Counted from the stretch's first letter, positions 32,874-59,572 are shown. The stretch: 64,000 nucleotides of DNA from Dehalococcoidia bacterium (GCA_022828105.1 JAJEJC010000001.1:109471-173470), one strand, 5' to 3'. A program made the numbers and translations. The notes: a model not told the origin generated them from the letters alone.

Positions 32874-35372
32874 TCAGTCAACGGCCACCCTCTCGCCGGC
32901 CCGCACATCGTCCATCGTCCCGCTGATGCCCCGTTCGACCAGCGAGCGGTACTCCGCCTCGGTCATCCCCAACTCCTGGGCAAACACCTCGAACGAGTGT
33001 TGGCCGACGCATGGCGACGGCCTGAGCTGCCGATCTTCCGACCCGCTGAATCGCCACGGCGCGCCCGGCAGCCACGACGGTCCGACCTCGGGATGCTCGA
33101 CCGACTGCACGAATCCGTTGGCCAGGTAGAGCGGGTCGGGCTCCATGAACTGCTCGTACGGCTTCGCCACCCGTGCGGCGTCCATGCCGAGCTCCAGGAG
33201 TCGGCGCTCCACGGAGTCCGCAGGTTGAGACGAGGTCCAACCGCCGATGATCTCGTCAAGCGCCGACTCGTTGCGTTTGCGAGATGCGGCGTCCATGAAT
33301 CGCGGATCAGCCGCCAGTTCGTGCGCCCCCAGTTCGAGACAGAGGGACGTCCACTCGGACTCGCTGCCGACCGCAATCGCGACCCACTCGTCGTCGCCCG
33401 CGCAGGGGAAGACGTTGTGCGGCGCGCGCTCACGGTCGCGATTGCCGAGCGGGACCGGCAAGCGGCCGGTGGCGTCGTACTCGGCGATCGCGTCGCCGAC
33501 GACCACGCCCATCGCCTCAAGCATGGCCACGTCGATCCGTTGTGGTCCGCCGACTCGTTCGCGGCGAGCCAGCGCGGCGATCACGGCCGCGGCCATCGCA
33601 TAGCCGGAGATCGAGTCGGGATACAGGCCGCCCGTATTCATGCCCGGGTCGCCGTCGTAGCCGTGGATCGAGGACAGTCCCGACATCGGTTCGGTCGTCG
33701 CGCCGTTGGCAGGATAGGCGGAGAAGGGTCCGGTCACGCCGTAGCCCGAGATCGAGGCAAGGATCACGTCGGGGCGCCGTGCGGCCAACGCGTCCAGGGT
33801 GATCCCCCAGCCGTCCAGCACGCCGGGCCGGAAATTCTCGCAGACGACATCGAAGTTCGGCATCATGCGCCAAAAGATGTCCTTGCCCTCGTCGGTGTTC
33901 AGATCGAGCGTGATTCCGCGCTTGTTCAGATTGACCGCGTTGTAGACCCCCTGCGTGTTCTCGGGATGTTGCGTCTTCGACTCGTCCAGGACCGCCTTGC
34001 CGACCCAGGGCCGCAGCAGCCGCCAGATGTCGATCCGACGCAGCGCTTCGATCTGCACCACGTCCGCGCCCAGGAATCCCAGCAGCTCCGTGCCAAACGT
34101 CCCGCTCCACGCCTGCGTGAAGGTCAGGATGCGGATGCCGTCGAGCGGACCGTTCGAGGTCGGCGGTGAGCCCCCCACTGCCTTCGGCATCTCCCCCCGC
34201 TTCGCGGGGGGAGAGCGGCGATCCTGGTCCGCTCCCAGCCTTGGCGCCGGCGATCCTTGCGACCAGCTTGGCGGGGAGATCGGATGCAGATCGCCCGACG
34301 CGCGCACCGTCCGCCCCTCGATCTCTGTCTCGACGATGAACCCGCGCGATTGCAACTGTTCGTTTTCGACCAGCTCCGGAATCGTCTGCAGCACCCCGGA
34401 GATGCAGCGCAGCGCGGCCAGTCTGTGGAACAGCGGCCACTTCTGCATCGCCGGCAGCTCGCGAGCCACGCCCGCCACGACGGCGGTCAAGTCCTGCGAG
34501 TAGCGTTGGTTGCGCGCCTGCAACTCCTCGCGCGCGCCCTGGTCGGGCAGATTGAACAGCGCCATCGCCTCGCGCCAGTTGTGCCAGTCGCCGAAGCCAA
34601 AGTTCATCCGCCCGTCGGCGGCGTCCCAGAGCGGTCCCGGCTCGCCGCGAGGCCGGCCGCCGGTCGCGCCGCGCGACCAGCCGCTGCCCTGGTAGATCGC
34701 GCCGATGGTCCAGGGGTAGACGGTGTGCGTCATCGCCTCAATCTCGCGGACATCGACCAGTTCAGGAGCGGCAGACTCGGAGCGACGACGCAAGGCAGCG
34801 GTCGCGGCGACGAACGCGGCGAGTCCGCCCATGTAGCCGAACTGGCGCGAGGGCAGCGAGAGCGGTGGCTCGTCCTGGAGTGCGTTCACGTGCGCCCAGC
34901 CGCAGCGCGCATTCAGCGTCAGGCTGCTGCCCGGCGCATTCGCCATCGGACCTTCCAGTCCATAGGGCGTGACCGAGAGATGAACCGCGTCGGGCCGCAT
35001 CGCCGTAAGCGGCCAATCCGAGAGCGCGCTCGGGCCATCGGTCGTCACCACCACATCGGCCGCGGCGATCCACGGCTCGGACTCTGCCTCGTCGGCGATT
35101 ACGACCGAGCGCTTGCCCCAGTTGACGTAGGCGTGCAGCGCCGAGCGCTCGACGCCGGCTTGGTCGTCGAGGAAGGGCGCTTCATGCCGGAGCGGATGAC
35201 CCTCGGGCGGCTCCAACATCACCACCTCTGCGCCGTGGTCGGCGAACAGCCGAGCCGCGAACGCTCCCGACATCCGCCGCGACAGGTCAACCACCAGCAG
35301 GCCGTCGTAAGCGGGAACAAGCTCCTCGGTCATTGCGTCGCTCACCCAATGCTCAGTGTGATTCAGCATCAC
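32874..35372 (-). CDS. tandem-fused family III (CaiB/BaiF) CoA-transferase, two complete domains in one 832-aa ORF
   Basis: Domain 1 (LVVDLSRRMSGAFAARLFADHGAEVVMLEPPEG) and domain 2 (IRILTFTQAWSGTFGTELLGFLGADVVQIE) are each about 400 aa. The linker contains a repeat-element copy in frame. Confidence 0.82.
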   Translation of the reverse strand: MMLNHTEHWVSDAMTEELVPAYDGLLVVDLSRRMSGAFAARLFADHGAEVVMLEPPEGHPLRHEAPFLDDQAGVERSALHAYVNWGKRSVVIADEAESEPWIAAADVVVTTDGPSALSDWPLTAMRPDAVHLSVTPYGLEGPMANAPGSSLTLNARCGWAHVNALQDEPPLSLPSRQFGYMGGLAAFVAATAALRRRSESAAPELVDVREIEAMTHTVYPWTIGAIYQGSGWSRGATGGRPRGEPGPLWDAADGRMNFGFGDWHNWREAMALFNLPDQGAREELQARNQRYSQDLTAVVAGVARELPAMQKWPLFHRLAALRCISGVLQTIPELVENEQLQSRGFIVETEIEGRTVRASGDLHPISPPSWSQGSPAPRLGADQDRRSPPAKRGEMPKAVGGSPPTSNGPLDGIRILTFTQAWSGTFGTELLGFLGADVVQIEALRRIDIWRLLRPWVGKAVLDESKTQHPENTQGVYNAVNLNKRGITLDLNTDEGKDIFWRMMPNFDVVCENFRPGVLDGWGITLDALAARRPDVILASISGYGVTGPFSAYPANGATTEPMSGLSSIHGYDGDPGMNTGGLYPDSISGYAMAAAVIAALARRERVGGPQRIDVAMLEAMGVVVGDAIAEYDATGRLPVPLGNRDRERAPHNVFPCAGDDEWVAIAVGSESEWTSLCLELGAHELAADPRFMDAASRKRNESALDEIIGGWTSSQPADSVERRLLELGMDAARVAKPYEQFMEPDPLYLANGFVQSVEHPEVGPSWLPGAPWRFSGSEDRQLRPSPCVGQHSFEVFAQELGMTEAEYRSLVERGISGTMDDVRAGERVAVD
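34158..34205 (+). repeat. REP/MITE-like element copy inside the CoA-transferase inter-domain linker (GAGCCCCCCACTGCCTTCGGCATCTCCCCCCGCTTCGCGGGGGGAGAG)
   Basis: Translated in frame as ...SPPAKRGEMPKAVGGSPP... between the two CoA-transferase domains. Confidence 0.8.
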
Positions 35373-35428
35373 GTTATCCGATGCTGCCGAGTTCCTGACC
35401 TATCCTCAGCCGACAGCAGGAGGACGAC

Positions 35429-36958
35429 ATGGCGAGTTACGACGACATCATCATCGGTGCGGGTTCGGCGGGTGCGGTGATTGCGGCTCGGTTGTCGGAG
35501 GACCCGAACCGGCGTGTGCTGTTGTTGGAGGCGGGACCGGATTACACGCGGGTCGAGGACATGCCGCGCGACCTGCTCAAGCCGTGGGTATCGTGGCGCG
35601 ACCACGACTGGGGCTTCCAGGCCAACGCCCGCCACGGCCGCGAGTTCCCCCTGCATCGCGGCAAGGTGATGGGCGGCTCATCGGCCGTCAACGGGACCAT
35701 CGCCTTGCGCGGCGTTCCCGGCGATTTCGAGTCGTGGGTCGCGATGGGCTGCGACGAGTGGGGCTTCGAAGACGTCCTGCCCTACTACCGGCGTCTTGAG
35801 TCCGATCCCGAAGGCGGCGACTTCCACGGTCGGTCGGGGCCTGTGCCGATCGAGCGCGAGCCGGAAGAGAACTGGCAGCCGTTGCAGCGGGCCTTCTACG
35901 ACGCCTGCCGCGACAACGGATTCGACGATGTCTGGGACCACAATTTGCCCGACGCGACCGGCGTCGGGCCCTGGCCGCGCAACCGCAGCAACGGCAACCG
36001 CATGTCGACCAACATCGCCTACCTGCTCGGCATCCGCGACCGCCCCAACCTCACCATCCGCCACGGCGTGCTGGTCGACCGGCTGAGCTTCGACGCCGAG
36101 TCCGGCGCGCGCGTCAACGGCGTCGTGCGGGCCGACGGCGAAGTCATTCACGCCGATCGCGTCTGCGTCTCGGCCGGCGCGGCGGTGTCGCCGGCGATCC
36201 TGCTGCGCAGCGGGATCGGACCCGCCGAAAAGCTTGGCCCGCACGGGATCGCACAGCGGGCGGCGCTGCCCGGCGTCGGCGAGAACCTGATCGACCACTT
36301 TGGCACCGGGGTGCAGGCGTTTCCCAGGCCGGAGGTCGTTCACGATCCCGACGTCGTCACCGAGATCGGCGTGCGCTACACCGCGCCCGGCTCGGACCAG
36401 TTCAACGACATGCAGCTCGCGATCTCGACGATCTGGGACGAGGAGCAGGTGCGCGGTCTGACCGAGGCGCCGCGCCGGCATCCATCGTTCGGGATCGGCG
36501 CGGTGATCCAGCGCCCGAACTCGCGAGGATCGGTGACGCTGCGCTCGACCGACCCGTCCGACCAGCCGCAGCTCGACATGAACTACGCCTCGCATCCCGA
36601 AGACCTGCGCCGGCTGATGGACGGTTTGCGGCTGTCCTGGGAGATCATGCACTCGGACGCGATCATGCCGTTCGTCGAGCGCGTGATCGCGCCGCGGCCC
36701 GAGGTGATCGAGTCCGACAACGCCCTGGCCGACTACATCCTCCGCACCACGTCCACCACGTGGCACATCTGCGGCTCGGCCCGCATGGGCCAACCGACCG
36801 ACCCGCTGGCCGTCACCGATCAGCGAGGCCGCGTCCATCAGGTCGACAACCTCAGGGTCGCCGACACCTCAATCATGCCCAACATCGTGAGCTGCAATAC
36901 CAACCTGACCGCAATCATGATCGGCGAGCGGGTGGCGGAGTCGATGCAGAGCGACTGA
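35429..36958 (+). CDS. GMC-family FAD-dependent oxidoreductase
   Basis: DIIIGAGSAGAVIAARLSEDPNRRVLLLEAGP is the Rossmann motif, and C-terminal GMC signatures are present (HICGSARMG, NLRVADTSIMP). Confidence 0.9.
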   Translation: MASYDDIIIGAGSAGAVIAARLSEDPNRRVLLLEAGPDYTRVEDMPRDLLKPWVSWRDHDWGFQANARHGREFPLHRGKVMGGSSAVNGTIALRGVPGDFESWVAMGCDEWGFEDVLPYYRRLESDPEGGDFHGRSGPVPIEREPEENWQPLQRAFYDACRDNGFDDVWDHNLPDATGVGPWPRNRSNGNRMSTNIAYLLGIRDRPNLTIRHGVLVDRLSFDAESGARVNGVVRADGEVIHADRVCVSAGAAVSPAILLRSGIGPAEKLGPHGIAQRAALPGVGENLIDHFGTGVQAFPRPEVVHDPDVVTEIGVRYTAPGSDQFNDMQLAISTIWDEEQVRGLTEAPRRHPSFGIGAVIQRPNSRGSVTLRSTDPSDQPQLDMNYASHPEDLRRLMDGLRLSWEIMHSDAIMPFVERVIAPRPEVIESDNALADYILRTTSTTWHICGSARMGQPTDPLAVTDQRGRVHQVDNLRVADTSIMPNIVSCNTNLTAIMIGERVAESMQSD

Positions 36959-36972: not shown

Positions 36973-36995
36973 AGCCCCCCGCCTACGCGGGGGCG
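36973..36995 (+). repeat. minimal hairpin related to the family (GCCCCCCGC-CTAC-GCGGGGGC) between convergent GMC and MFS genes
   Basis: Seen directly; it could act as a bidirectional terminator. Confidence 0.5.
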
Positions 36996-37024: not shown

Positions 37025-38707
37025 TTATGGCACGCCCGACTTCTGCGGCCTCGCCGATGCCAACGACCTGACATGCGGGGCGAACGCCCTTGCGCCATTC
37101 GGCGAGGAGCCGTTGGCTGAGAGTGCCGGCTGTGGAGATGCCTCGGGACCGCCCAGCGACGTGGCCTGCTCGAGGCGTTGACGGCGGGGGACCAGGATCC
37201 AGCCGACGACGCCCGCGACCACGGCGAAGCTGATCCCGAAGAAGAAGGTGCGCTTGATCGACTGCACGAACGAGTCGGTCAGGGTCGCCTGCACGTCTGC
37301 GGCGATGCCGGGATCGAGTCCCGGCAGCAGGTGATAGGCCGCGCCGATGCCCGAGGCCATCGTGTCGATGTCGGCGGTGGAGAGCGGCAGACCGCTGAGG
37401 CCGTCGCGGACGCCGGAGGCGTACATCACGGCGGCGAAACTGCCGAGGATGGCGATCGACATCGTGCCGCCCAACTCCTGGCCGGTCGTGGTCACCGCCG
37501 ACGCTTTGCCGGCCATGTCGACCGGCACGGCGGCCATCGAGGTATCGGTCGTGGCCGGCATATGCAGAGAGCCTCCGATGCCAAGCCAGGCGAGCGCCAG
37601 TCCGACCATCCAGTAGGGCGTGTCGACCGCCAGCACCAGGGCCAGGATCAGCAGGCAACCGCCGCCGTGCATGGTCGGCGCCCAGAAGAGCAGGAATCGC
37701 GGACCGACCCTGGGCAGGATGAACCCGGCGATCGGCGCGCAGACGATCATCACGACGGCCAGCGGCATCACGCGCAGGCCGCTCTCGGCGGCCGAGACGC
37801 CCTGCACAAGTTGGAAGAACTGGGGCAGATAGAACAACACCCCCATCAACGCGAACATGATGAAGAACATGCCGACCATTGCGCCGACGAAGTCGCGTTG
37901 CTTGAAGAATCCAAGCGGCATCAGCGGCTGCTCGGTGCGCCGCTCGATCAGGATGAACGCCGAAAGCGAGAGCACGGCCACCGTGATCGTGGCGAGGATC
38001 ACCGGGTCGTCCCAACCGCGCGGGATGCCTTCGATGATCGAAAAGACCAGCGCCAGCATGCCGACCGTGCCGGTCAGCGCGCCGGGCACATCGAGTCGGG
38101 TGTGCAACACGGACTTGGTCGAGGGCACGATGGTCAAGGCGACCAGCGCCAGCGCCGACAGCGGGGCGGGCACCCAGAAGACGGCCGACCAGTCGATCTG
38201 ATCGACCAGCGTCCCGCCCAGGAACGGGCCCAGGGCCATGCCGATACCCATTGCCCCGGCCCAGATACCGAACGCCTTGCTGCGCTCCCGGCGCGGGAAC
38301 ACCGCGGTCAGCGTGGACAGCGTCTGAGGTAGCACGAGCGCGCCGCCGATTCCCTGCAATCCGCGGCCGATGATCAGGAAGTTGGCGTCGGGCGAGAAGG
38401 CTACGCCGATCGATGCGATGGTGAACACGGTGAGACCGATGCCGAGGATCCGGCGGCGGCCGAAGCGGTCGCCCAGCGCGCCGGCCAGCAGCAGCAGGCC
38501 GCCGAACAGCACCAGGTAGACGTCGACGACCCAGAGCGACTGCGACTCGGACATCTCGAAGACGCGCTTGATCGTCGGCAGCGCCGTGTTCACGATCGTC
38601 GCGTCGAGCGAGACGATGGTCTGCGATCCGGCAAGGATTGCCAACACGACCCAGCGCCGTCGCGGGCTGACGTCGACGGAGGCGACGATGCCGTCGGCGG
38701 CACTCAC
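37025..38707 (-). CDS. MFS transporter, DHA2 (14-TM) family
   Basis: LDATIVNTALPTIKRVFEMSESQSLWVVDVYLVLFGGLLLLAGALGDRFGRRR. Confidence 0.88.
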   Translation of the reverse strand: MSAADGIVASVDVSPRRRWVVLAILAGSQTIVSLDATIVNTALPTIKRVFEMSESQSLWVVDVYLVLFGGLLLLAGALGDRFGRRRILGIGLTVFTIASIGVAFSPDANFLIIGRGLQGIGGALVLPQTLSTLTAVFPRRERSKAFGIWAGAMGIGMALGPFLGGTLVDQIDWSAVFWVPAPLSALALVALTIVPSTKSVLHTRLDVPGALTGTVGMLALVFSIIEGIPRGWDDPVILATITVAVLSLSAFILIERRTEQPLMPLGFFKQRDFVGAMVGMFFIMFALMGVLFYLPQFFQLVQGVSAAESGLRVMPLAVVMIVCAPIAGFILPRVGPRFLLFWAPTMHGGGCLLILALVLAVDTPYWMVGLALAWLGIGGSLHMPATTDTSMAAVPVDMAGKASAVTTTGQELGGTMSIAILGSFAAVMYASGVRDGLSGLPLSTADIDTMASGIGAAYHLLPGLDPGIAADVQATLTDSFVQSIKRTFFFGISFAVVAGVVGWILVPRRQRLEQATSLGGPEASPQPALSANGSSPNGARAFAPHVRSLASARPQKSGVP

Positions 38708-38773
38708 GGCGCGTCCGCTGCGTGGTCGGGGGTCCTGGCAGGCATGCTCATTACGGCAAGGCTACCGAACGCG

Positions 38774-40510
38774 CTAGGGCACGCCCGACTTCTGGGGACG
38801 CACCAACGCCGTTGCCTGCGCAGCAAGGCGGAGGTCGCCCGCGCCGTTGGCGGATGCGCCGGCCGGTCGGGCGGCGGTCCGACCGTTGGCCGAGGCGCCG
38901 TTGGCGGCGGCCTCCGGGGCCAGGGTCAACTTGCATGAGGAATCGACGGGCTTGCCGTCTTCCCACTGCATCTGTGTCTGACGTTGCCGCTTGGGGACCA
39001 GGATCCAACCGACTACCCCGGAAATGAGCGCGAAGATGATGCCGAAGCGCATCGTGTCGGTGATCGCGTCGACGAAGGACTCGCGCAGCACGAGTTGGGT
39101 CTCCTGGAGCAGCGATGCATCCAGCGTCGGCAAGACCTGCTGCGCCGCCCCGATGCCGGTCGCGAGGATTTCCACGGACTGTTCCGGCAGTCCAATTGGA
39201 GCAAGCCCTGAGTTGACCCCGGAGGAGTACACGGCTGCAGCGAAGGAACCGAGAATCGCAATCGCCAGCGTGCCGCCGAGCTGGCGTCCGGCATTGTTGA
39301 CCGCCGACGCTTTGCCAGCCAGGTCGACCGGCACCGAGGCCATCGCCGTGTCGGTGGTGGCCGGCATATGCATCGCGCCGCCCATACCGAGGAAGGCCAG
39401 GCCCAGGCCGATTATCCAGTAGGGCGTGTCGATATCGAGGACGAAGCTGAACAACAGCAGCGCCCCGCCGCCGTGGATCGCAGGAGCCCAGAAGAGCATG
39501 AAGCGTGGACCCAGCACCGGCAACAGGCGCGCCGCGACCGGCGCGAAGAACATCATCATTAGCGCCAGCGGCATCAGCCGCGCGCCGCTCTCGGTGGCCG
39601 ACATGCCCTGCACCAGTTGGAAGAACTGCGGCATGTAGAACATGACGCCCATCAAGGCGAACATGATGAAGAACATCCCGATCATCGACCCGGTGAAGTC
39701 GCGCTGCTTGAAGAACGCCATCGGCAGCAGCGGCTGATCGGTGCGCCGCTCGATGATGATGAACAGCAGCGCCGACACGATCGCGACCGCGAACGATCCC
39801 ACGATCAGCGAGTCGGTCCAGCCCTTCTGGATGCCCTCGATGATTGCGAAAACGATGGCGACCATGGCGATCGTGCCGGTGATCGCGCCGGGCACGTCGA
39901 GCTTGGTGTGCAACTGCGAGCGCGACTCCGGCACCACCGCCATGCCGAGCATCGACAGCGCCGCGATCGGCGCGGGCACCCAGAAGACGCCCGCCCAGCC
40001 GATCAGGTCGACGAGCACGCCGCCGACCAGCGGGCCGAAGGCCATGCCGAATCCCATCGCGCCGGCCCAGATGCCGATTGCCCGGCCTCGTTCCTCGCGC
40101 GGGAAGACCGCAGTCAGGATCGACAGCGTCTGCGGGATCACGAGCGCGCCGCCGAGACCCTGGAGACCGCGTCCGACGATCAGGAAGTTGGCATCGGGCG
40201 AGAAAGCCACCGCGATCGAGGCGGCGACAAAGATGCCCATGCCGATCATCAAGGTCTTGCGGCGACCGAAGCGGTCGCCCAGCGCGCCGGCCAGGAGCAG
40301 CAGGCCGCCGAAGATCACCATGTACGCGTCGGCGACCCAGAGCGATTGCGACTCCGACATCTCGAAGGCGCGTTTAATCGCGGGCAGGGCGGTGTTGATG
40401 ATCGTCGCGTCGAGCTGGACCAGCATCTGCGCGCCGGCCAGCACCAGCAGGATCGCCCAACGGCGCCGGTTCGTCGCCGGCCCCGCGCTCGTCGTCGGCT
40501 GAGCGCTCAT
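38774..40510 (-). CDS. MFS transporter, DHA2 family (tandem paralog of the downstream gene)
   Basis: LDATIINTALPAIKRAFEMSESQSLWVADAYMVIFGGLLLLAGALGDRFGRRK, which is about 60-70% identical to the neighbouring gene. Confidence 0.88.
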   Translation of the reverse strand: MSAQPTTSAGPATNRRRWAILLVLAGAQMLVQLDATIINTALPAIKRAFEMSESQSLWVADAYMVIFGGLLLLAGALGDRFGRRKTLMIGMGIFVAASIAVAFSPDANFLIVGRGLQGLGGALVIPQTLSILTAVFPREERGRAIGIWAGAMGFGMAFGPLVGGVLVDLIGWAGVFWVPAPIAALSMLGMAVVPESRSQLHTKLDVPGAITGTIAMVAIVFAIIEGIQKGWTDSLIVGSFAVAIVSALLFIIIERRTDQPLLPMAFFKQRDFTGSMIGMFFIMFALMGVMFYMPQFFQLVQGMSATESGARLMPLALMMMFFAPVAARLLPVLGPRFMLFWAPAIHGGGALLLFSFVLDIDTPYWIIGLGLAFLGMGGAMHMPATTDTAMASVPVDLAGKASAVNNAGRQLGGTLAIAILGSFAAAVYSSGVNSGLAPIGLPEQSVEILATGIGAAQQVLPTLDASLLQETQLVLRESFVDAITDTMRFGIIFALISGVVGWILVPKRQRQTQMQWEDGKPVDSSCKLTLAPEAAANGASANGRTAARPAGASANGAGDLRLAAQATALVRPQKSGVP

Positions 40511-48537: not shown

Positions 48538-48628
48538 GTTGTGCTCCGGTTGGTTTGAGGGACGTTTAGGGAAGCATCGCACAGGATTGGGTCGTCTGTT
48601 GTGCGGTTGACTTGGGTGCCGCGTGAGC

Positions 48629-48720: not shown

Positions 48721-48748
48721 ACTGCGGCTAACTGTTAGGGTGCGGGCC

Positions 48749-49228
48749 ATGTCTTTGTTTGAGTCCTCCCAGTGTGAGTTTGAGACTGCGTTTCAGCTTC
48801 TTCCGGAGATCAGCCCGGAGGCGCCGGACTGGGGCGGTCGGTTCCGTCGGGAGATGCCGTCGGTCCCGTCGCCGTACTACGGGGTCAATGTGGTGGACGT
48901 TCGGCGGGAGCACTACGACGCCGTGTTCCAGAACATCCAGGGCCAGGTGCAGGGCGCGGAGCAGCTATTCGGCGGGCGGCTGCATTTCTTTTCGGCGACG
49001 GACTACGGGGAGATCCGGCGCGTCATCTTCATCATCTACTTCGAGAGCTTTCCCGCGACCGAGAGCGTGCTTGAGATGCTGCGCGCAGGCGGAATGGATG
49101 TGGGCGACGACGCGAGCGAGATTCCCGACATCTGGACAGGGTTCGACCTCTGGACCGATTTCACTCGTCTAGCGGAGGGCTATACGTGGTGGATCGCGCC
49201 TGCGATGGCGGAGCACGAGTCGCCGTAG
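48749..49228 (+). CDS. hypothetical cytoplasmic protein (about 160 aa)
   Basis: ATG 48749 (MSLFESSQCEFETAFQLLPEISPEAPDWGGRF...). No family recognised. The track ORF extends upstream into the repeat. Confidence 0.5.
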   Translation: MSLFESSQCEFETAFQLLPEISPEAPDWGGRFRREMPSVPSPYYGVNVVDVRREHYDAVFQNIQGQVQGAEQLFGGRLHFFSATDYGEIRRVIFIIYFESFPATESVLEMLRAGGMDVGDDASEIPDIWTGFDLWTDFTRLAEGYTWWIAPAMAEHESP

Positions 49229-49250
49229 GGTTTCGGTGGCGGAGCGGGAC

Positions 49251-49333
49251 GGGGATGCCCCTTGAGCCTTCGGCATTTCCCGCCGCTGCTCGGGCGGAGA
49301 GGGAGCGGGTCCCTGTGGTCACAGGGACTAGGA
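49251..49333 (+). repeat. degenerate REP/MITE-like copy with CCCTGTGGTCACAGGG hairpin
   Basis: Its GCCTTCGGCAT module is shared with the canonical copies. Confidence 0.6.
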
Positions 49334-49355
49334 GTCGTCCAGCCTAGGCCGGCGT

Positions 49356-49415
49356 GGGGGAGCCCCCCTCTGTCACTACGTGACATCTCCCCCCGCCTTC
49401 GGCGGGGGGAGATGG
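49356..49415 (+). repeat. REP/MITE-like element (GGGGAGCCCCCCTCTG-TCACTACGTGA-CATCTCCCCCCGCCTTCGGCGGGGGGAGATGG)
   Basis: Located between convergent genes (48749 gene and the vWA gene). Confidence 0.85.
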
Positions 49416-49426
49416 AGCCGAGCGGG

Positions 49427-51280: not shown

Positions 51281-51390
51281 GGTGGCCTCCTGACCGACGT
51301 GTGCAGGGGCGTCTGAGTTGCGACCGTCAGTCGCCCCGTTGGGGAGTTAGACGTCAGAGGGTCGGAGATGGTTCCCGGCGGCTGGTGAGC

Positions 51391-51566
51391 GGGGCGGGGC
51401 GCCCCCTCTGTCACTACGTGACATCTCCCCCCTGGAAGGGGGGAGAGGCAGACGGATGCCCTCCCCCCCCCGGCATGGAGGCGGGGGGAGATGCCGAAGG
51501 CAGACGGATGCCATCTCCCCCCGCCTGACGGCGGGGGGAGACGCCGAAGGCAGAGGGGGTTCGCCT
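51391..51566. repeat. nested array of at least three REP/MITE-like units in alternating orientation
   Basis: GCCCCCTCTGTCACTACGTGACATCTCCCCCCTGGAAGGGGGGAGAGGCAGACGGATGCC...GGAGGCGGGGGGAGATGCCGAAGGCAGACGG...CATCTCCCCCCGCCTGACGGCGGGGGGAGACGCCGAAGGCAGAGGGGG, in the divergent intergenic region between the vWA gene and the ThuA-like gene. Confidence 0.85.
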
Positions 51567-51606
51567 ATCATTGGCGCACTTGCTGACTACTGAGAGAGAG
51601 GGCACC

Positions 51607-52422
51607 ATGGCCAGCGCTCCGACCCGTGTACATGTAGTGACTGGTGGGTTTCCGCCCGGATCGCATGGCGGGCATGACATGGACTTCGCGCGGCTGAAGT
51701 TGCTGGAGATGCTGTACGAGGACGGCAACGTCCGCGCGACGACGGGCAACGACTTCACCGATATGTGGAAGTGGCTGCAGGTGACCGACGTGCTGGTCAC
51801 GTACACGGCCGGTCCGTACGCCGACGATCCGCAGAATGAGATCCTGCGCGACTGGATTGGCAATGGCGGGCACTGGGTTGGCTTGCACGGGACATCGGGC
51901 GGCAAGGCCGCGCGCATGGGCGACGGCAAGCGGCAGATGGTGAAGATGGACCATCATGAGACGCTCGGCGGCTTCTTCATCAACCACCCGCCGATCAAGC
52001 GCTTCACGGTGGACGTCCAGAACGTGAACTCGCCGATCCTTGAGGGTCTGCCGGAGCAGTTCGACGTGATCGACGAGCCGTACATGATTGAGATCACGGA
52101 CCGTCCGAACACGGACATCCTGCTGACGGCGCCGATCGGTCCGGACAACTGGCCCGACTTCGGCTTCGATTACGACGAGGACACGGCGATCGAGGACGAC
52201 GGCGTGACGCGGGTGTTCGGCTACACGCGCGGGATCGGCGAGGGCGGGGTGTGCTATATCGCGCTGGGTCACTGCCACTCGCCGCTGACCAACTCGCAGC
52301 CGTTCGTCGAGGACAACGCGAAGGACGAGAACGGGGACAATCCTCGGACGCTGCGGTTTACGTGGGAGACGGAGGAGTACGCACAGTTGCTGCGGAACAC
52401 GCTGAGCTGGTCGAGGGGCTGA
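51607..52422 (+). CDS. ThuA-like (type-1 glutamine-amidotransferase-like) protein
   Basis: VHVVTGGFPPGSHGGHD...WLQVTDVLVTYTAG...GGHWVGLHG match the ThuA (PF06283) pattern. Start ATG 51607. Confidence 0.78.
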   Translation: MASAPTRVHVVTGGFPPGSHGGHDMDFARLKLLEMLYEDGNVRATTGNDFTDMWKWLQVTDVLVTYTAGPYADDPQNEILRDWIGNGGHWVGLHGTSGGKAARMGDGKRQMVKMDHHETLGGFFINHPPIKRFTVDVQNVNSPILEGLPEQFDVIDEPYMIEITDRPNTDILLTAPIGPDNWPDFGFDYDEDTAIEDDGVTRVFGYTRGIGEGGVCYIALGHCHSPLTNSQPFVEDNAKDENGDNPRTLRFTWETEEYAQLLRNTLSWSRG

Positions 52423-52452
52423 TTGACCGTCAACCGGTCGGCGTTTCTTGTT

Positions 52453-52510
52453 GGGAGCCCCCCTCTGCCTTCGGCATCTCCCCCCGCCTGACGGCGGGAG
52501 GAGAGGGGAA
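52453..52510 (+). repeat. REP/MITE-like element (3' arm mutated to GGCGGGAGGAGAG) followed by two further GC hairpins to about 52612
   Basis: Located between convergent genes (ThuA-like and the alpha/beta hydrolase). Confidence 0.8.
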
Positions 52511-52637
52511 GAAGGCAATAGGCAACTCCCCTTGCGGGGCGCGGGGAGAGCAGTAGGGGGAACCGAGCGGGTCCCCCTGAGCAAGTCAGGGGCAGGCTCT
52601 GCGTGAAGCAGGGACTTGGAGCCGGGCGGTGACTTTG

Positions 52638-53660
52638 CTATTCGCCGATGACGGGTTCGGGGAGGACGTCGAGGAGGGGGGCGAAGGGGTCGAGTTCTTC
52701 TTCGGCGAGGCGGGCGTCGGGTGCGGCGACGGGCGTGACGACCTCCGGGTGCTGGCTGAAGAGGGCGGCGAAGATTGACTCGGCGTGCTCGATGAAGCCG
52801 AGCGAGCCGACGCCGTCGACGTAGATCGGGCGGCAGTCGGGCAGTTCGGAGGCGATGCGGCGGCCCATCTGGATGGGATGGGATTCGTCGAGCATGGCGT
52901 GCCAGAGCATGACCGGGAAGCGAACGTCGCCGAGTTCGAAACCCCAGGGCTCGAGATGGCGGCGGGCTTCGTCGCCGGCTGCGGCGGGTCCCTGGCGGAA
53001 CGCTTCGCGCAGGTCGGTGATGCGGTTGGTGAGCGTGGGCTCGGAGCCGAGGATGACGCCGTCGACGGGGGGCATGCGCTTGATCTGCTCGGCGACGACA
53101 CGGTCAGGCCGCTTCTGGACCGAGCGTCCGTAGCCGCGCATCCAGAGCGAGGCGAGTCGGCGGGACTTGAGGAAGAGGGTGTAGATCAGGCGCCACTCGT
53201 AGGACATGCCTTCGAGCACGTCGCCAGAGTCGATGGCGCCGAGTCCGGAGATGAGGGCGACGCGGTGCAGCCGCTCGGGCATCTTGAGGGCGCAGGCGAG
53301 CGTGTAGGGCAGGCCGGCGGAGATGCCGGCTACGGAGAACTTCTCGAACTCGAGGTAGTCGGCGAGCTGGCGCAGGTCGGCGGGCCAATCGAGGATGGTG
53401 CGCTCGGCCAGCGGGTCGGAGTAGCCGAAGCCGGGCCGCTCGGGCGCAATCAGTCGGACGCCGGCGCGGGCGGCTCCCGGCGCCATGACGGCGGCCGCCA
53501 TGCGTGAGGAAGGGATGCCGTGGTGAAAGAAGAGGGGCTCGCCCCTGGGGTCGCCGTACTCGGCCCAGCTCAACGCTCGGCCATCGGACAGCCGCATCAC
53601 ACTATGTGGCGGCTCGGGGTCGTCGTCGTCGATGCGGCTGGAGGGCTCGGCGATTGTCAT
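52638..53660 (-). CDS. alpha/beta-fold hydrolase
   Basis: Nucleophile elbow GISAG and the general fold pattern. Start ATG 53658-53660 (MTIAEPSS); the track ORF extends into the repeat. Confidence 0.8.
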   Translation of the reverse strand: MTIAEPSSRIDDDDPEPPHSVMRLSDGRALSWAEYGDPRGEPLFFHHGIPSSRMAAAVMAPGAARAGVRLIAPERPGFGYSDPLAERTILDWPADLRQLADYLEFEKFSVAGISAGLPYTLACALKMPERLHRVALISGLGAIDSGDVLEGMSYEWRLIYTLFLKSRRLASLWMRGYGRSVQKRPDRVVAEQIKRMPPVDGVILGSEPTLTNRITDLREAFRQGPAAAGDEARRHLEPWGFELGDVRFPVMLWHAMLDESHPIQMGRRIASELPDCRPIYVDGVGSLGFIEHAESIFAALFSQHPEVVTPVAAPDARLAEEELDPFAPLLDVLPEPVIGE

Positions 53661-53696
53661 GTAGTGAGATCGTATCACTCGCTGCGAAGAGAGCGT

Positions 53697-53756
53697 GGGG
53701 AGCCCCCCTCTGTCTCTACGAGACATCTCCCCCCGCTTCGCGGGGGGAGAGGGAAC
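53697..53756 (+). repeat. REP/MITE-like element (GGGGAGCCCCCCTCTG-TCTCTACGAGA-CATCTCCCCCCGCTTCGCGGGGGGAGAGGGAA)
   Basis: Located between two co-directional genes. Confidence 0.85.
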
Positions 53757-53761
53757 CGGAG

Positions 53762-55510
53762 TTAGTCGGTGGGTTCGGAGACGAGGAGTTCGGCTTCGAC
53801 GTCGTCGGCGAGGTTTTCGATGACGGGGGTCTCGCCCAGGGCTCCGTCCTCGACCTGCATGTCGAAGGCGTCGGCGAAGTAGCGGTAGGACTGATACTGG
53901 TCGCCGTACTTCATGTGGCCGGCGGTGTGGTGGGCGGCGGCCATGAGCAGGGTGTTGCGCGACTCGGACGAGGTGCGGCGGTAGTCCTCCAGCATGCAGA
54001 GGCCGATTTCCTGATTGTGCGGGTCATTGCCCTGCTTGGCGATGCCATTGGCGAGGGTTTCGACCAGCGGTCCGTCGTCGTAGCCGAGGCTGAGGTAGTT
54101 CTCGACCCAGAAGACGGACTGCTCCATGTCGAGCGAGAGCATGGCGTCATTGAGTTCGCTGAGCGCCTGGCCCTGGGAGACCTGCGTCGCTTCGCCGCCC
54201 TTGTCGTAGGCGGCGAAGTAGGTGGCTGCGCCACGGGTCTTGTTGCCCTTGGAGTTGAGCGCCCAGTGCGCGCACTGGTTGATGAAGTTGGCGGCGACGA
54301 AGAGCAGCTTGGTCTTGTGCGGGTGGTCGAAGTGTTCGTAGAACCAGCCGAGGGTGTTGCAGTATTCGTAGCCGTGCTGGGGCATGGAGAAGTTGGCCGG
54401 CAGGCCGCATTCGAGGACGACCCGGGCGGCGGCGATCTGGATGGCGTCGAGGATCGACTTGGGCGAGCGTCCGGCCTTGAGCAGGTCGGAGAGCAGGGCG
54501 ATGTAGGACTCCTGCGGCTCGTTGATGATCGTGCGGATGACCATCTCCGACTCGGGGCCGGAGAGCGGGATCTGGTTGGTGAAGAGTTCCTGGTCGCGGG
54601 TCGACCTGGTGGTCGCGGAGAGAGAGGAACTGGGCGCCTCCTCTTCGAGGTGGTACATCATGATCTGGCAGGCGGACTCGTAGAGCGAGTACCAGCGCGG
54701 GCCGACGGCGATGTCGGGGACGCCGGCGTAGAGGACGTGGTGGGCGTTCTCCCAGCCGATGGCGCGTCCCAGCTCGACGGTGCTGCGGGCGCGGAACGAC
54801 TTGTGTCCGGTGGTGTAGGAGCGGTTCCAGTACATGCGGTCCTGAACGTCGATCAGTCCGGCAAAGACGAGTTGGGCGAGGATTTCCTCGCGGCGCTCGG
54901 GGAACTGCTCCCAGAGGCCGAGGAAGAGGGCGTACTCGTCGTCGACGTGTCCGTACTGGACCATCGTGAGCCAGGTGTTGAGGCCTTCCTCGAGTGAGCC
55001 GTCCCAGCGGGTCGGCTGCTGATCGTCCCAGTGCGCAGCGGGCGGGGCGGGGCCGTCGGGGTACTGCTCGGGGTCGTAGGTGCGGCGCGAGTAATGGCCG
55101 GGCATCCTGCCCTTGAGCTGATTCCAGATGTCGAGCCCGGTGGGCACGTACCAGGCGGTCTGGCTCAGCGGCAGGTGCCGCAGTTCTTCGGAGACGTAGT
55201 TCTGCAGGTTGAGCGTGGCGCGGGAGGAGAGCAGACAGTGGTCGTTGTTGACGAAGCGGACGATGCCCTCGTCGATGCGCTGGTGATAGGGAACGTGGGT
55301 GTAGGGCGCGTGGGCGCGGATCGTCTCTGAGAGGATCTCGGTGGTGGGCCGCCCGTCCTTGATCAGGTCGAATGCCTGCTGCAGGGCGGAGGTGTTGTCG
55401 CGCTCGACGATGGTCTTGCGATAACGGTCGTAGGCGGCGGCGGTCTTGCGGTCCATGTAGGCGGGGGATGCGCCGCTGTCACCGGTGCCGGATGTCTTGT
55501 GCAGGCTCAT
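53762..55510 (-). CDS. hypothetical protein, 583 aa, mainly alpha-helical, no family recognised
   Basis: Start ATG 55508-55510 (MSLHKTSGTGDSGASPAYMDRK...). Long stop-free ORF with coding-like composition. The 60 codons upstream are a translated repeat. Confidence 0.6.
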   Translation of the reverse strand: MSLHKTSGTGDSGASPAYMDRKTAAAYDRYRKTIVERDNTSALQQAFDLIKDGRPTTEILSETIRAHAPYTHVPYHQRIDEGIVRFVNNDHCLLSSRATLNLQNYVSEELRHLPLSQTAWYVPTGLDIWNQLKGRMPGHYSRRTYDPEQYPDGPAPPAAHWDDQQPTRWDGSLEEGLNTWLTMVQYGHVDDEYALFLGLWEQFPERREEILAQLVFAGLIDVQDRMYWNRSYTTGHKSFRARSTVELGRAIGWENAHHVLYAGVPDIAVGPRWYSLYESACQIMMYHLEEEAPSSSLSATTRSTRDQELFTNQIPLSGPESEMVIRTIINEPQESYIALLSDLLKAGRSPKSILDAIQIAAARVVLECGLPANFSMPQHGYEYCNTLGWFYEHFDHPHKTKLLFVAANFINQCAHWALNSKGNKTRGAATYFAAYDKGGEATQVSQGQALSELNDAMLSLDMEQSVFWVENYLSLGYDDGPLVETLANGIAKQGNDPHNQEIGLCMLEDYRRTSSESRNTLLMAAAHHTAGHMKYGDQYQSYRYFADAFDMQVEDGALGETPVIENLADDVEAELLVSEPTD

Positions 55511-55580
55511 GGAGCGCTCCAGGCAGTTGGAACTGTTGAATCTGTTGCGCAGTATAGCGAGCATGGGTACGGGGATCGGT

Positions 55581-55676
55581 GGGGAGCCCTCCTTCAGCCT
55601 TTGGCAGCTTCCCCCCAGAGGGGGGAAGCGGGGGACCAGCCGGCGGCTCTCCTCCAGAGGAGGAAGCGGGGGAACG
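55581..55676 (+). repeat. variant GC-rich double-hairpin element (CTTCCCCCC-AGA-GGGGGGAAG and TCCTCC-AGA-GGAGGA)
   Basis: Shares the 5' GGGGAGCCC box with the main family. It lies in the divergent intergenic region between the 583-aa gene and the DUF1800 gene. Confidence 0.6.
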
Positions 55677-55793
55677 ATCTGCATTTGGCGATGCTGCAAT
55701 GTCCTATATTGCGGCTGTAGAGCGAATGCCGGGGCTTGACAGCCTCTGCGTACTCGCGGACGGTAACTTCTGAAGCGTTTGGAAGGTGATTTG

Positions 55794-57194
55794 ATGTCTG
55801 ACGATCAACGAGCGCTGGTCGCTCACCTGATGCGTCGCGCAGGAGCCGGCGCGACACCGGCCGAACTGGACGCGTTGGCGGAACGGCCGTATGACGAGAT
55901 TGTCGAAGACCTGATCAATCCGCCGCCGACTGCGGACGAGGACGACGATCTGATCTTCCGCTACTTCCCCTCGCTGGCCAACTCGGACACGCCCTGGCCG
56001 TGGAGCGCGCGCTGGATCTACTGGATGGTGAACTCGGAGTCGCCGCTGCGCGAGAAGATGGCGTTGTTCTGGCACCACGTGTTCGCGACGGCCTGGTTCA
56101 AATCGGAGCACGGGCCATCAATGCCGGTGCATGTCCAGATGTTCCGCGACCATGGCCTGGACAACATGCGCGTGCTGCTCGGTGAGCTGTCACGCGACCC
56201 GGCGATGATCTTCTGGCTGGACAACGTCGAGTCGGTCAAGGGCGCGCCGAACGAGAACTACGGGCGCGAGCTGTTGGAACTGTTCTCGATGGGCGTGGGC
56301 AACTACACCGAGGACGACATCAAGGCGGCGGCGTACAGCTTTACGGGCTGGACCTTTGAGCAGCCGATTCCGCTCTATCCGCACGGCGGCTACCCGTCGC
56401 ACTTCGTCTATCGCGAGGATCTGCACGACGACTCGGAGAAGACGTTCCTGGGCCAGACCGGCCAGTGGAACGGCGACGACATCATCGACATCATCGTGCA
56501 GCAGCCGGCGACGGGCCGCTTCATCGGCCGGCACCTGTACAACTTCTTCGTCAAAGACGAGCCGGGCGTGTCGGCCTGGTCAGTGACCGAGCCGGGCAAC
56601 CCGGGGGCGGTCGACGAATTGGCGTCGGCGTTTGCAGAGTCGAACGGCGACCTGCGCGCGGTGATGCGGGTGCTGTTCAACGCCGAATGGTTCAAGCAGG
56701 AGCGCTACGAGCGCGTCAAGTGCCCGGCCGAATGGGTGGCGGGCGCGTACAAGCTGTCGGGCAAGCTGGGCATGCCGCAGCCGGAGATGTGGAATCTGCA
56801 CCTGACGATGGGCGCGATGGGTCAGACGCTGATGGACCCGCCCTCAGTCGAGGGCTGGCACACCGGCAAGGAATGGATCGACGGCGGCACGCTGATGGAG
56901 CGGATCAACTTCGCCTCCAAACTGGTCTCCGATCCGTCGACGCCGGTGGTGCAGGAGCTGGTCAGCCGGCTGCAGGAGCGGGGCGCGAGCAGTCCCGACG
57001 AGCTGGTGGACGCGGCGCTCGATATCGCCGGACCGCTGGCCGTATCGGACAACACGCGCGCGGCGCTGCTCGAAGCGGCGTCGGCGGGCGGCGACCTGTC
57101 CTACGGCAGCGACGAGGATCGCGACGCAGTCGGCGAGCGCGCGGCCCAGGCGCTGCGCCTGGTGATTGCATCGCCCGAGTACCAGTTCGCGTAA
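55794..57194 (+). CDS. DUF1800 family protein
   Basis: The DUF1800 N-terminal signature (LVAHLMRRAGAGATPAEL) runs throughout. Start ATG 55794 with SD GGAAGG. No signal peptide. Confidence 0.85.
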   Translation: MSDDQRALVAHLMRRAGAGATPAELDALAERPYDEIVEDLINPPPTADEDDDLIFRYFPSLANSDTPWPWSARWIYWMVNSESPLREKMALFWHHVFATAWFKSEHGPSMPVHVQMFRDHGLDNMRVLLGELSRDPAMIFWLDNVESVKGAPNENYGRELLELFSMGVGNYTEDDIKAAAYSFTGWTFEQPIPLYPHGGYPSHFVYREDLHDDSEKTFLGQTGQWNGDDIIDIIVQQPATGRFIGRHLYNFFVKDEPGVSAWSVTEPGNPGAVDELASAFAESNGDLRAVMRVLFNAEWFKQERYERVKCPAEWVAGAYKLSGKLGMPQPEMWNLHLTMGAMGQTLMDPPSVEGWHTGKEWIDGGTLMERINFASKLVSDPSTPVVQELVSRLQERGASSPDELVDAALDIAGPLAVSDNTRAALLEAASAGGDLSYGSDEDRDAVGERAAQALRLVIASPEYQFA

Positions 57195-57248: not shown

Positions 57249-58403
57249 ATGAGCGGCAACGGACACAAGGATCCCGTCCTGGTCATCGTCCAGCTTTCGG
57301 GCGGGAACGACTTCATGAACACGTTGGTGCCGTACACCAACGGTCACTACTACGACTCGCGGCCGCTGGTCGGCGTGCCCGAGGACGAGGTGATGCCGAT
57401 CAACGAGACGCTAGGGTTCAACCCGGCGGCGGAGCGGCTGAAGGGCATGTACGACGCCGGCGATGTGGCGGTGATCCAGGGGATCGGATATCCGAACTCG
57501 TCGCGGTCGCACTTCCGCGGCATGGACATCATGCACACCTGCGAGCCGGACCGGATCTCGACCGAGGGCTGGGTGGCCAAGCTGATCCAGCGGCTCGACC
57601 CGGAGTCGGCCAATCCGCTGACGGGCGTGAACATCGGACGCGGTCTGCCGCGGGCGATGGCGGCGCCGGGCGTGACGGCGACGTCGGTGGGCGACCTGGA
57701 CAACTACGGTCTGATGCCGGACATCCAGGCGGAAGAGGATCGCAACCGCGACCTGGAGATCTTCAAGCGGATGTACACGCCGGCGATCGGCGCGGGGATG
57801 GTGATGGACTACCTGCGCCAGACCGGGACCGACTCGCTGGCCGGCGCGGACCTGCTGGCCCCGGTGCCGGGGATGTACGAGTCCTCGGTCGAGTACGGCG
57901 CGAATCCGATTGCCAAGGCGCTGCGCGACGTAGCACGGATTCACACGGCCGGTCTGGGCACGCGCGTGTTCTACACGAATCACATCGGTTACGACACGCA
58001 CTCGCACCAGCCGCCGGTGCATCCAGGGCTGCTGCGCGACGTCTCGGGGGCGCTGGACGACTTTATGACCGACCTGCGCGAACACGACGCGGCGGAGGAA
58101 GTCTCGATTCTCGTCTTTACCGAGTTCGGGCGGCGGATGAAGGACAACGGCTCGGGGACCGACCACGGCTCCGGGGGCGGCGCGTTCATCATCGGCGAGC
58201 ACGTCAAGGGCGGCCTCTACGCCGAGTACCCGTCGATTGATCCGAAGGACTGGCTGAACGGCGAAGACCTCTACCACACGATCGACTTCCGCGGCATCTA
58301 CGGCACCATGCTGGAGCAGTGGATGGGCATCGAGCCCGAGGAGATTGTGGTCGGAGATTTCGAGCAGGTCCAGCCGTTCGAGCGGACGATGCTGGCGAAC
58401 TAG
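57249..58403 (+). CDS. DUF1501 family protein (sulfatase/alkaline-phosphatase-like)
   Basis: PVLVIVQLSGGNDFMNTLVPY is the signature DUF1501 start, followed by HFRGMD and GTDHGSGG. An in-frame TAA immediately upstream rules out an N-terminal signal peptide. Confidence 0.85.
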   Translation: MSGNGHKDPVLVIVQLSGGNDFMNTLVPYTNGHYYDSRPLVGVPEDEVMPINETLGFNPAAERLKGMYDAGDVAVIQGIGYPNSSRSHFRGMDIMHTCEPDRISTEGWVAKLIQRLDPESANPLTGVNIGRGLPRAMAAPGVTATSVGDLDNYGLMPDIQAEEDRNRDLEIFKRMYTPAIGAGMVMDYLRQTGTDSLAGADLLAPVPGMYESSVEYGANPIAKALRDVARIHTAGLGTRVFYTNHIGYDTHSHQPPVHPGLLRDVSGALDDFMTDLREHDAAEEVSILVFTEFGRRMKDNGSGTDHGSGGGAFIIGEHVKGGLYAEYPSIDPKDWLNGEDLYHTIDFRGIYGTMLEQWMGIEPEEIVVGDFEQVQPFERTMLAN

Positions 58404-58470
58404 GGGACCCTCACCCTAGCCCTCTCACAGAGGGAGAGGGGATCGGAGCCGCCCATTGCAGGGGCGACAG
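58404..58470 (+). repeat. short GC-rich hairpin element (CCTCTC-ACAGAGG-GAGAGG), weak variant
   Basis: Located between the DUF1501 stop and the NHL start. Confidence 0.4.
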
Positions 58471-59507: not shown

Positions 59508-59522
59508 TGAGCCGATTCCCTT

Positions 59523-59572
59523 TCCCCCCGCTTGGCGGGGGGAGATGTCACGGAGTGACAGAGGGGGGCTCC
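59523..59572 (-). repeat. REP/MITE-like element in inverted orientation (CCCCCCGCTTGGCGGGGGGAGATGTCACGGAGTGACAGAGGGGGGCTCC)
   Basis: This is the reverse complement of the canonical architecture, ending 2 nt before the MNT start codon. Confidence 0.85.

Follow-up and report, generated by a model that had tools for sequence, protein, structure and literature searches.

The window analysed here is a 64,000-nucleotide (nt) stretch of a Dehalococcoidia bacterium assembly (GCA_022828105.1, JAJEJC010000001.1:109471-173470). Between about 34.1 and 59.6 kb it carries, mostly in its intergenic spacers, copies of a GC-rich (~75% GC) element of 50-60 bases, called family A in this work. The first-pass annotation had described these copies as hairpins resembling repetitive extragenic palindromes (REP) or miniature inverted-repeat transposable elements (MITE). 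The data presented below indicate that the family is probably part of a Chloroflexota-wide set of small, non-coding, non-autonomous repeats of the REP/BIME (bacterial interspersed mosaic element) kind, whose conserved unit is a potential intrastrand triple helix and in which the folded structure is under selection.

Concerning its detection, the repeat family is real. The core CCCCCCGC-N5-GCGGGGGG, allowing up to 2 mismatches, matched the window 11 times versus 0.14 expected, and the 5' box, allowing up to 3 mismatches, matched it 7 times versus 1.3 expected. Moreover, the copies at 34.1-59.6 kb were found again with a profile hidden Markov model (HMM; nhmmer) built from 183 copies from other genomes only, none of them from the window. 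This profile was registered by hand because the MAFFT alignment misaligned the 3' arm, the loop length being variable; the MAFFT alignment was retained for the linker hairpin only. The HMM tally in the window is ten family A units, one degenerate unit, one weak partial unit and one variant. As had been noted at first, the element is absent from the 0-34 kb block: no HMM match better than E = 4 was obtained in 1-34000 or in 60000-64000, where about ten spacers of at least 50 nt are present. The units and the related hairpins of the window are the following (E, nhmmer E-value):

34166-34217, plus strand: family A unit (E 1.3e-13).
36974-36994: plain GC hairpin GCCCCCCGC-CTAC-GCGGGGGC between convergent genes (no nhmmer match).
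46881-46938, plus strand: family A unit with the short linker CCTTCGG, at the left edge of a 2.6-kb island (E 2.4e-14); its bottom strand reads TCTCCCCCC..GGGGGGAGA..AGAGGGGGG, and the G-rich strand of 46886-46932 is TCTCCCCCCGCCGTCAGGCGGGGGGAGATGCCGAAGGCAGAGGGGGG.
48630-48713, plus strand: family A unit whose linker position is occupied by a further, nested hairpin module, CCCCTGCCTACGCAGGGGCAGGCTC (E 4.6e-10).
49258-49304, plus strand: degenerate family A unit (E 2e-4).
49357-49415, plus strand: family A unit in a convergent spacer, marking the right end of the island; its linker is the long form TCACTACGTGA (E 1.5e-12).
51402-51448, plus strand: family A unit that opens the array of three found between the divergent VWA and ThuA genes (E 8e-9).
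51461-51504, minus strand: family A unit of the array, third block decayed (E 1.2e-6).
51511-51560, minus strand: family A unit of the array, third block 8/9 (E 1.3e-9).
52453-52509, plus strand: family A unit between the convergent ThuA and hydrolase genes (E 1e-13).
52519-52553, plus strand: weak partial unit, 3' of the preceding one (E 0.04).
53697-53755, plus strand: family A unit with the long linker TCTCTACGAGA, between co-directional genes (E 2.9e-15).
55581-55635, plus strand: subfamily D unit with box CCCTCCTTC and arms CTTCCCCCC/GGGGGGAAG (HMM match 55582-55626, E 0.002).
58403-58444, plus strand: subfamily E (BoxC/TMECO-type) unit CCCTCACCC-TAG-CCCTCTC..GAGAGGG, with one mismatch to the published TMECO pattern.
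59516-59573, minus strand: family A unit in the opposite orientation, adjoining the ATG of the next gene (E 9.6e-14).

Most of the twelve copies listed in the first-pass annotation are found in this inventory, and two of them had to be reclassified. The 36973 copy has no profile match and was rejected as a family member; it is a simple GC hairpin with a resemblance to the module that some units carry nested. The 58404 copy is of the BoxC/TMECO-type subfamily. A partial second hairpin lies at ~55647-55674, 3' of the subfamily D unit. In addition, a second small repeat adjoins main units; it starts with GAGCGGGT, followed by a hairpin (e.g. GTCCCTGTGGTCACAGGGAC or CCCCCTGAGCAAGTCAGGGGCAGGCTC), and was seen at 49300-49345, 49416-49430 and 52555-52600 of the window and in the related loci L051 and L060.

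The consensus of family A is GGGAG-CCCCCCTCT-G-(hp1)-CA-TCTCCCCCC-(GC-loop-GC, or a bare 2-5-nt loop)-GGGGGGAGA-GGGGA, where hp1 is a small linker hairpin. The outer GGGAG and GGGGA are conserved at 62-93% and 60-78% per position, respectively, and the flanks beyond them are unrelated. The box CCCCCCTCT had been read at first as the reverse complement of the 3' arm. That reading was wrong: the box mirrors the 5' arm TCTCCCCCC, that is, it is the parallel complement of the 3' arm GGGGGGAGA. As for the alternative fold proposed with it, one long stem, only 7 nt (CCCCTCT/AGAGGGG) can pair with arm plus tail, and the tail is poorly conserved. This outer Watson-Crick stem between box and 3' tail was also considered as the cause of box conservation and rejected, as it can form in subfamily A and not in B, C or E, and the tail shows just the 60-78% conservation given above. 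Read along the G-rich strand, the order of the blocks is a pyrimidine arm Y (TCTCCCCCC), a loop, a purine arm R (GGGGGGAGA), a linker and a third, Hoogsteen block RH (AGAGGGGGG), with RH antiparallel to R. In this register the nine triads of family A are all allowed in the purine motif (seven G.G-C and two A.A-T).

In 152 of 169 main-arm hairpins, the third block found 2-30 nt away was antiparallel and perfect (9/9); in 7 of the 169, a perfect parallel block, i.e. a direct repeat, was present. The loci had been fetched with a box-containing pattern, so the figures free of this bias are those of the bystander, window and metagenome sets only. The bystander test was run for that reason on hairpins outside the retrieval pattern (arm of at least 8 nt, not self-mirror), where the third block was perfectly antiparallel in 57/98 cases versus perfectly parallel in 8/98. 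In the window, where no pattern selection operated, the third block is perfect in 6 of 11 units and has at most one mismatch in 9 of 11. The units at 48630-48713, with a 38-nt linker, and at 49357-49415 match the class II triplex pattern, and the third block of the subfamily D unit at 55581 is 8/9 in the mirror sense.

The linker between R and RH is itself structured. It consists of a mini-hairpin of 7-13 nt plus fixed junction bases, 9-15 nt altogether, and reaches up to 38 nt when a module is nested in it. Two versions of its hairpin hp1 exist, a short one (CCTTCGG or CCTGCGG) and a long one (TCACTCCGTGA, TCCCTACGGGA, TCGCTCCGCGA or TCTCTACGAGA). When 49 copies were aligned, pairing held in 99.5% of the hp1 cells, and at one pair the combinations AU, CG, GC and UA were counted 14, 7, 2 and 1 times, respectively; these compensatory changes mean that the pairing is kept and not the sequence. 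The loop of the large hairpin is highly variable: 196 copies show 76 different loops, their box and arms being intact. The folds of the units are more stable than those of shuffled sequences (z from -2.2 to -4.5).

Several large-hairpin loops were found both ways relative to the box among the family A copies of all loci: GCTTCGC 18 times versus GCGAAGC 6, GCGGAGC 17 versus GCTCCGC 12, and GCAGAGC 11 versus GCTCTGC 5. This suggests a flip-flop inversion of the loop through template switching within the palindrome.

Six diverged subfamilies retain the mirror relation with differing sequences, so that box and both arms co-vary:

Subfamily A: box CCCCCCTCT, 5' arm TCTCCCCCC, 3' arm GGGGGGAGA, box/arm mirror ..TCT/TCT..
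Subfamily B: box CCCCCTCC, 5' arm CCTCCCCC, 3' arm GGGGGAGG, box/arm mirror ..TCC/CCT..
Subfamily C: box CCCCCTC, 5' arm CTCCCCC, 3' arm GGGGGAG, box/arm mirror ..CTC/CTC..
Subfamily D (window 55581): box CCCTCCTTC, 5' arm CTTCCCCCC, 3' arm GGGGGGAAG, box/arm mirror ..CTTC/CTTC..
Subfamily E: box CCCTCACCC, 5' arm CCCTCTCCC, 3' arm GGGAGAGGG.
L079 type (named after one locus): box CCCCCATCC, 5' arm CCTTCCCCC, 3' arm GGGGGAAGG.

In subfamily E and in the L079 type, an A of the box corresponds to a T in RH, and the resulting T.A-T triad is allowed in the purine motif; in a pyrimidine third strand, that A would be a mismatch. The module CCCCTGCCTACGCAGGGGCAGGCTC of the unit at 48630-48713 is nested within units of other subfamilies too, and the module CCCC..GGGGCAGGCT was observed nested in linkers of subfamilies A, B, C and E.

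Judged by sequence, it is the mirror relation of the box to the hairpin that groups the family with the BoxC/PIT/TMECO intrastrand-triplex repeats (PMC4666352). TMECO, earlier called BoxC or PIT elements, is the motif CCCTCNCCC-N3-6-GGGNGAGGG-N3-GGGNGAGGG (Holder et al. 2015, PMC4666352); for these repeats, that article refers to Hoyne et al. 2000. Both kinds of repeat are formed by three consecutive 9-nt blocks, Y-R-RH, of class II with G.G-C, A.A-T and T.A-T triads, and both are G/C-rich, present in high copy number, mostly intergenic, found in either orientation and in variable regions, and without a known transposase. In fact, TMECO is described as intergenic, without strand bias and as a mark of variable regions, and its inverted pairs always combine a type A with a type B (PMC4666352), as those of family A combine a short and a long linker. 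Furthermore, subfamily E is the TMECO sequence type itself, represented by the unit at 58403-58444 of the window and by exact matches to the published pattern at 33 sites in 17 Chloroflexota loci. On the other hand, family A differs from TMECO in several features: the loop between R and RH is a compensated mini-hairpin of 9-15 nt instead of 3 nt, the large hairpin has an extra GC clamp, loops of up to 10 nt and the block sequence GGGGGGAGA, the hosts are Chloroflexota and not Proteobacteria or Cyanobacteria, and some copies lie in frame inside genes. Family A therefore does not follow the TMECO pattern with its short loops, and the ITxF limits (loops of 1-6 nt) would miss it because its R-RH loop is too long; it does follow the triad rule (Y, R and RH, stems of at least 8 nt).

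Regarding the distribution, one genome per species was scanned with the exact core pattern AGCCCCCCTCTG-N7-11-CATCTCCCCCC. At least 110 stretches in at least 25 Chloroflexota metagenome-assembled genomes (MAGs) match it, and all the matches listed are from Chloroflexota, namely Dehalococcoidia and two Anaerolineae. The latter two MAGs have ~47% GC, and the ~75% GC unit stands out in them. Several of the MAGs are presumably sponge-derived, to go by their isolate names (IRC, RHO, SB0664, PNGco). Viral contigs gave 0 matches and plasmids gave none. The profile matched 215 times in ~0.95 Mb (window plus loci), so that copies occur elsewhere in related genomes, genome-wide, and units persist at orthologous sites across species. 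The window itself is 99.99% identical to an ENA metagenome scaffold (KELL22-1_SAMN22237339 scaffold_115, 144.8 kb), and the nearest genome among the loci fetched is the Dehalococcoidia MAG OZ241962.1 (86% over 8 kb).

The position of the units with respect to genes was analyzed in 150 units with both neighbouring genes at most 400 nt away, the gene calls being crude. Co-directional, convergent and divergent spacers hold 94, 43 and 13 of them, respectively, compared with 405, 105 and 89 among all 599 spacers. Thus, units are enriched in convergent spacers (43/150 vs 105/599) and depleted in divergent ones (13/150 vs 89/599), and in co-directional spacers 59 are antisense and 35 sense. The contexts first described for the window, convergent, divergent, co-directional and once inside an open reading frame (ORF), are borne out by the gene calls. 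Units also form head-to-head (minus-plus) doublets. There are 31 of these, with spacers of 13-115 nt (30/31 at most 56 nt), some with a ~40-nt spacer conserved across genomes. The doublets are strictly heterotypic, since all of the 27 that could be typed pair a short hp1 with a long hp1, when ~45% would be expected. Arrays occur too, as at 51402-51560 of the window and in L081, which contains a 371-nt tandem mosaic.

This mosaic (L081 3855-4764, OZ244584.1) is a 371-nt unit repeated 2.5 times in tandem, in which a family A unit, a subfamily C unit and further hairpins are combined. Many loci of OZ253504.1 and OZ244584.1 have flanks that are nearly identical. The orientation of the units correlates with local GC skew (49/34 vs 32/82). 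A replication-strand bias was considered as its cause and dropped, given that no replichore pattern was found along five complete chromosomes and that orientation tracks gene strand only weakly. The sign of the local skew also varies between loci without a replichore pattern; at 44000-56000 of the window the skew is strongly positive (0.11-0.19) though both strands carry genes.

The turnover of the units was followed in three metagenome contigs (L111, L112 and L114) that are syntenic with 45.6-63.4 kb of the window at 72-86% identity. The contents of the corresponding spacers are:

MR_MLE/VWA spacer: in the window, a 2.6-kb segment with three genes and direct family A copies at its ends; in L111 and L112, ~100 nt with a plain hairpin.
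VWA/ThuA spacer: in the window, the three-unit array; in L111 and L112, a small gene.
ThuA/hydrolase spacer: in the window, subfamily A; in L111, subfamily C plus a short A; in L112, subfamily B.
Hydrolase/next-gene spacer: in the window, subfamily A; in L114, a BoxC-type unit; in L111, no unit.
DUF1501/NHL spacer: in the window, a BoxC-type unit; in L111, subfamily C.
NHL/next-gene spacer: in the window, subfamily A; in L111, no unit.

These differing contents indicate that, at fixed spacers, gain, loss and exchange of units proceed much faster than gene divergence, and the link to recombination hot spots proposed in the first-pass annotation fits this comparison. The 2.6-kb island (46829-49426) is absent from L111 and L112 according to blastn synteny and junction alignments. 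Its three genes are a GmrSD_C-like one (47572-48537, minus strand) and ORFs of 124 and 159 aa. In flank-to-flank BLAST, the orthologous spacers recovered (75-90% identity) turned out to be replaced, not cleanly interrupted, so no clean empty site was obtained, and the exact insertion boundaries cannot be read because the orthologous spacers are too diverged. The GmrSD_C-like gene is type IV restriction-like, and a ParD/ParE toxin-antitoxin pair (44575-45585, minus strand) adjoins the MR_MLE gene; to judge from the sequence, the region resembles a small defence/accessory patch. Furthermore, a Logan contig (SRR16351694_169459, L119) equal to 49383-51431 of the window ends inside the large hairpins of two units, which indicates that these repeats fragment short-read assemblies of these genomes.

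Some copies are found within coding sequence. Twelve of 205 pattern-defined units, taken in their own orientation, lie in ORFs that are coding-like on both sides. In the window, the unit at 34166-34217 is in frame and antisense in the linker of a two-domain CoA-transferase III ORF (32874-35369, minus strand), where it is translated as RSPPAKRGEMPKAVGG. This ORF, with two CoA_transf_3 stretches, is annotated as one gene of 831 aa. In the window, in the orthologues L062 and L067 and also in L019, where the unit is in the other orientation, the frame runs through the unit without a stop; it is thus maintained in four species. The possibility that the second domain is a separate gene starting at an ATG inside the unit was considered and set aside, as no such gene is on record. 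Compared with a paralogous pair in L014 (LLGEHNEEILAEL...), the first domain stops early (LGADQD...). Other in-frame copies are present in valyl-tRNA synthetase (ValRS, in L054), where APPASRGEMPQAEGG is a 12-residue insertion relative to the Thermus thermophilus enzyme (1GAX), in TatD orthologues of three genomes, with one, two and three 48-nt units at the same site, and in a DUF885-type ORF, with one unit. The recurrent pseudo-peptides seen at first in translated copies are real, and they lengthen at least five longest-ORF predictions with respect to the gene calls (e.g. 52638-53726 vs 52638-53660 and 53762-55699 vs 53762-55510).

Family A also shares features with other known systems. With REP, BIME and REPIN-RAYT (REP-associated tyrosine transposase) elements of Proteobacteria it shares short GC-rich extragenic palindromes in hundreds of copies, a preference for gene 3' ends, heterotypic inverted doublets (as the Y and Z REPs of BIMEs), arrays and long vertical persistence. 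It differs from them in having no GTAG/CGTC tag, no RAYT in the DNA sampled and an extra conserved third block. The assignment to a REP/BIME-like class made at first was right to this extent, as the repeats are high-copy, palindromic, mostly extragenic and orientation-independent, with inverted doublets and arrays. Rickettsia palindromic elements (RPE), reportedly described by Ogata et al. in 2000, are AT-rich palindromic repeats of ~100-150 bp, in frame within protein-coding genes, where their translation gives extra loops. They are CGTC-tagged (PMC3733652). The likeness lies in the in-frame translated copies, here in ValRS, TatD, the DUF885-type protein and the CoA-transferase linker; the sequences are unrelated, and here ~5% of the copies are coding. 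As in H-DNA mirror repeats, box and 5' arm form a homopyrimidine mirror repeat with a spacer. Unlike H-DNA, the unit carries the purine arm on the same strand and its predicted fold is therefore intrastrand, with no need of duplex unwinding.

How such a unit could work may be outlined as follows. In DNA made single-stranded by replication, repair or transcription, Y and R would pair as a Watson-Crick hairpin and RH would turn back and lie antiparallel on R, so that a triplex of the purine motif (class II) results, and the C-rich strand could form a pH-dependent pyrimidine version. The folded structure would be either the substrate of a trans-acting enzyme or a polymerase-stalling, template-switching structure. 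This would explain both the spread of the element and the rearrangement hot spots at spacers that bear it, and the effects on transcripts (3'-end protection, Shine-Dalgarno-like purine blocks) would be by-products. We infer that the triplex forms and that it drives spread and local rearrangement. It is possible, though at present rather doubtful, that the third strand is selected in vivo and that the tethered triplex is the recognition or propagation structure of a single-stranded DNA mobilisation or recombination system in Chloroflexota. If so, this would be the first co-variation evidence that intrastrand triplexes form and matter in living bacteria, and such a system would mobilise the units and swap them from spacer to spacer; it would also pick up accessory genes lying between two direct copies, the 2.6-kb island being an example.

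Several points weigh against a selected triple helix. TMECO oligonucleotides form a stable class II triplex in vitro by circular dichroism and nuclear magnetic resonance, but in vivo dimethyl sulphate footprinting of TMECO did not detect it (PMC4666352); for the family A sequence the triplex is predicted, its demonstration being confined to those oligonucleotides. The evidence for the mirror relation comes down to about five independent changes at subfamily level, and the sequence concerned is of low complexity. The C- and G-runs also permit alternative pairings, such as box CCCCCC with arm GGGGGG or GGGGAG with CTCCCC, and possibly a G-quadruplex or i-motif. Moreover, the linker of 9-15 nt (38 nt when nested) far exceeds the loops of 1-6 nt that define such motifs. 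Finally, the DNA sampled yielded neither a mobilising enzyme nor a target site or a clean empty site, and active transposition is therefore deduced only from presence/absence differences and coding insertions.

Among the alternatives, the units could be classical REP/REPIN hairpins, substrates of a single-copy RAYT located elsewhere, with the box as a protein-recognition or guide sequence. High-copy palindromes that persist at orthologous sites would agree with it, as would head-to-head doublets with short spacers, some of them with a conserved ~40-nt spacer as in REPINs and BIMEs, and copies inside genes, which are also known for REPs (PMC3733652). We nevertheless regard it as unlikely. The GTAG/CGTC tags that define the two REP superfamilies (PMC3733652) are at neither end of the unit, and recognition by a protein would not predict a co-varying mirror repeat. 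A phmmer search with E. coli RayT and an IS608 TnpA seed, the latter an approximate query used as a probe only, gave nothing at E <=10 among 8999 six-frame ORFs of the window and 115 loci; thus, no RAYT/IS200-type protein that would support the role as RAYT targets suggested at first was found in these ~950 kb of element-rich DNA. A MITE origin, also proposed at first, would make the units deletion derivatives of an insertion sequence, moved by a DDE transposase via terminal inverted repeats. In spite of the small size, the many copies and the presence/absence differences between relatives, this is very improbable: conservation ends at GGGAG and GGGGA without terminal inverted repeats, no target-site duplication of 4-8 bp exceeds the shuffled expectation at any of the boundary offsets tested, and no full-length insertion sequence among the larger repeats in the loci matches the unit.

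It would be somewhat surprising, too, if the units were functional RNA elements, that is, 3'-end stabilisers, factor-dependent terminators or translation signals that benefit the flanking genes. The enrichment in convergent spacers with depletion in divergent ones, the very stable hairpins (z -2.2 to -4.5 against shuffles) and the purine block of the 59516-59573 unit just before an ATG speak for such a function. However, units point either way in co-directional spacers (59 antisense, 35 sense), copies are also present in divergent promoter regions and in coding sequence, and the orthologous spacers of relatives carry other subfamilies or none. There is no T/U tract, and no unit is terminator-like; the role as pure terminators considered at first is thus not supported, nor is a distribution limited to gene 3' ends. 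The units have no match in Rfam, where only the tRNA passes the gathering thresholds and the other matches are chance-level (mir-1759, E 0.58). PIT/BoxC had no promoter or terminator activity in E. coli either, according to an earlier study as cited in PMC4666352. The preferred reading is still that of non-autonomous repeats in which a folded, potentially triple-helical structure is selected.

Intrastrand-triplex repeats fold in vitro and in vivo probing has been negative, and the new family adds natural variation that bears on folding in the cell: a Hoogsteen block, Y arm and R arm that change together, a hairpin linker and strictly heterotypic doublets. In practical terms, the units break short-read assemblies, inflate ORF predictions and add translated segments to real proteins, all of which concerns the annotation of Chloroflexota MAGs.

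Some minor observations were also made in the window. In the unit at 59516-59573, the purine block AGAGGGGGG ends a few bases before the next ATG (window 59516-59580; this start is conserved in L111, MPMVFGFA), and judging from this position it could be Shine-Dalgarno-like. A terminator-like hairpin belonging to the ThuA gene itself is found at 52423-52441, immediately ahead of the unit at 52453. Two adjacent MFS transporter genes (37025-40510, minus strand) are paralogous, with 300-nt stretches of 74-77% identity 1806 nt apart. The VWA-domain gene carries a 21-nt tandem repeat (TGCTGCTGCATGGCCTGCTCT) at 50943-51065, near its N-terminal part. The sole RNA gene detected in the window is a tRNA-Asp (GTC) at 29246-29322, plus strand.

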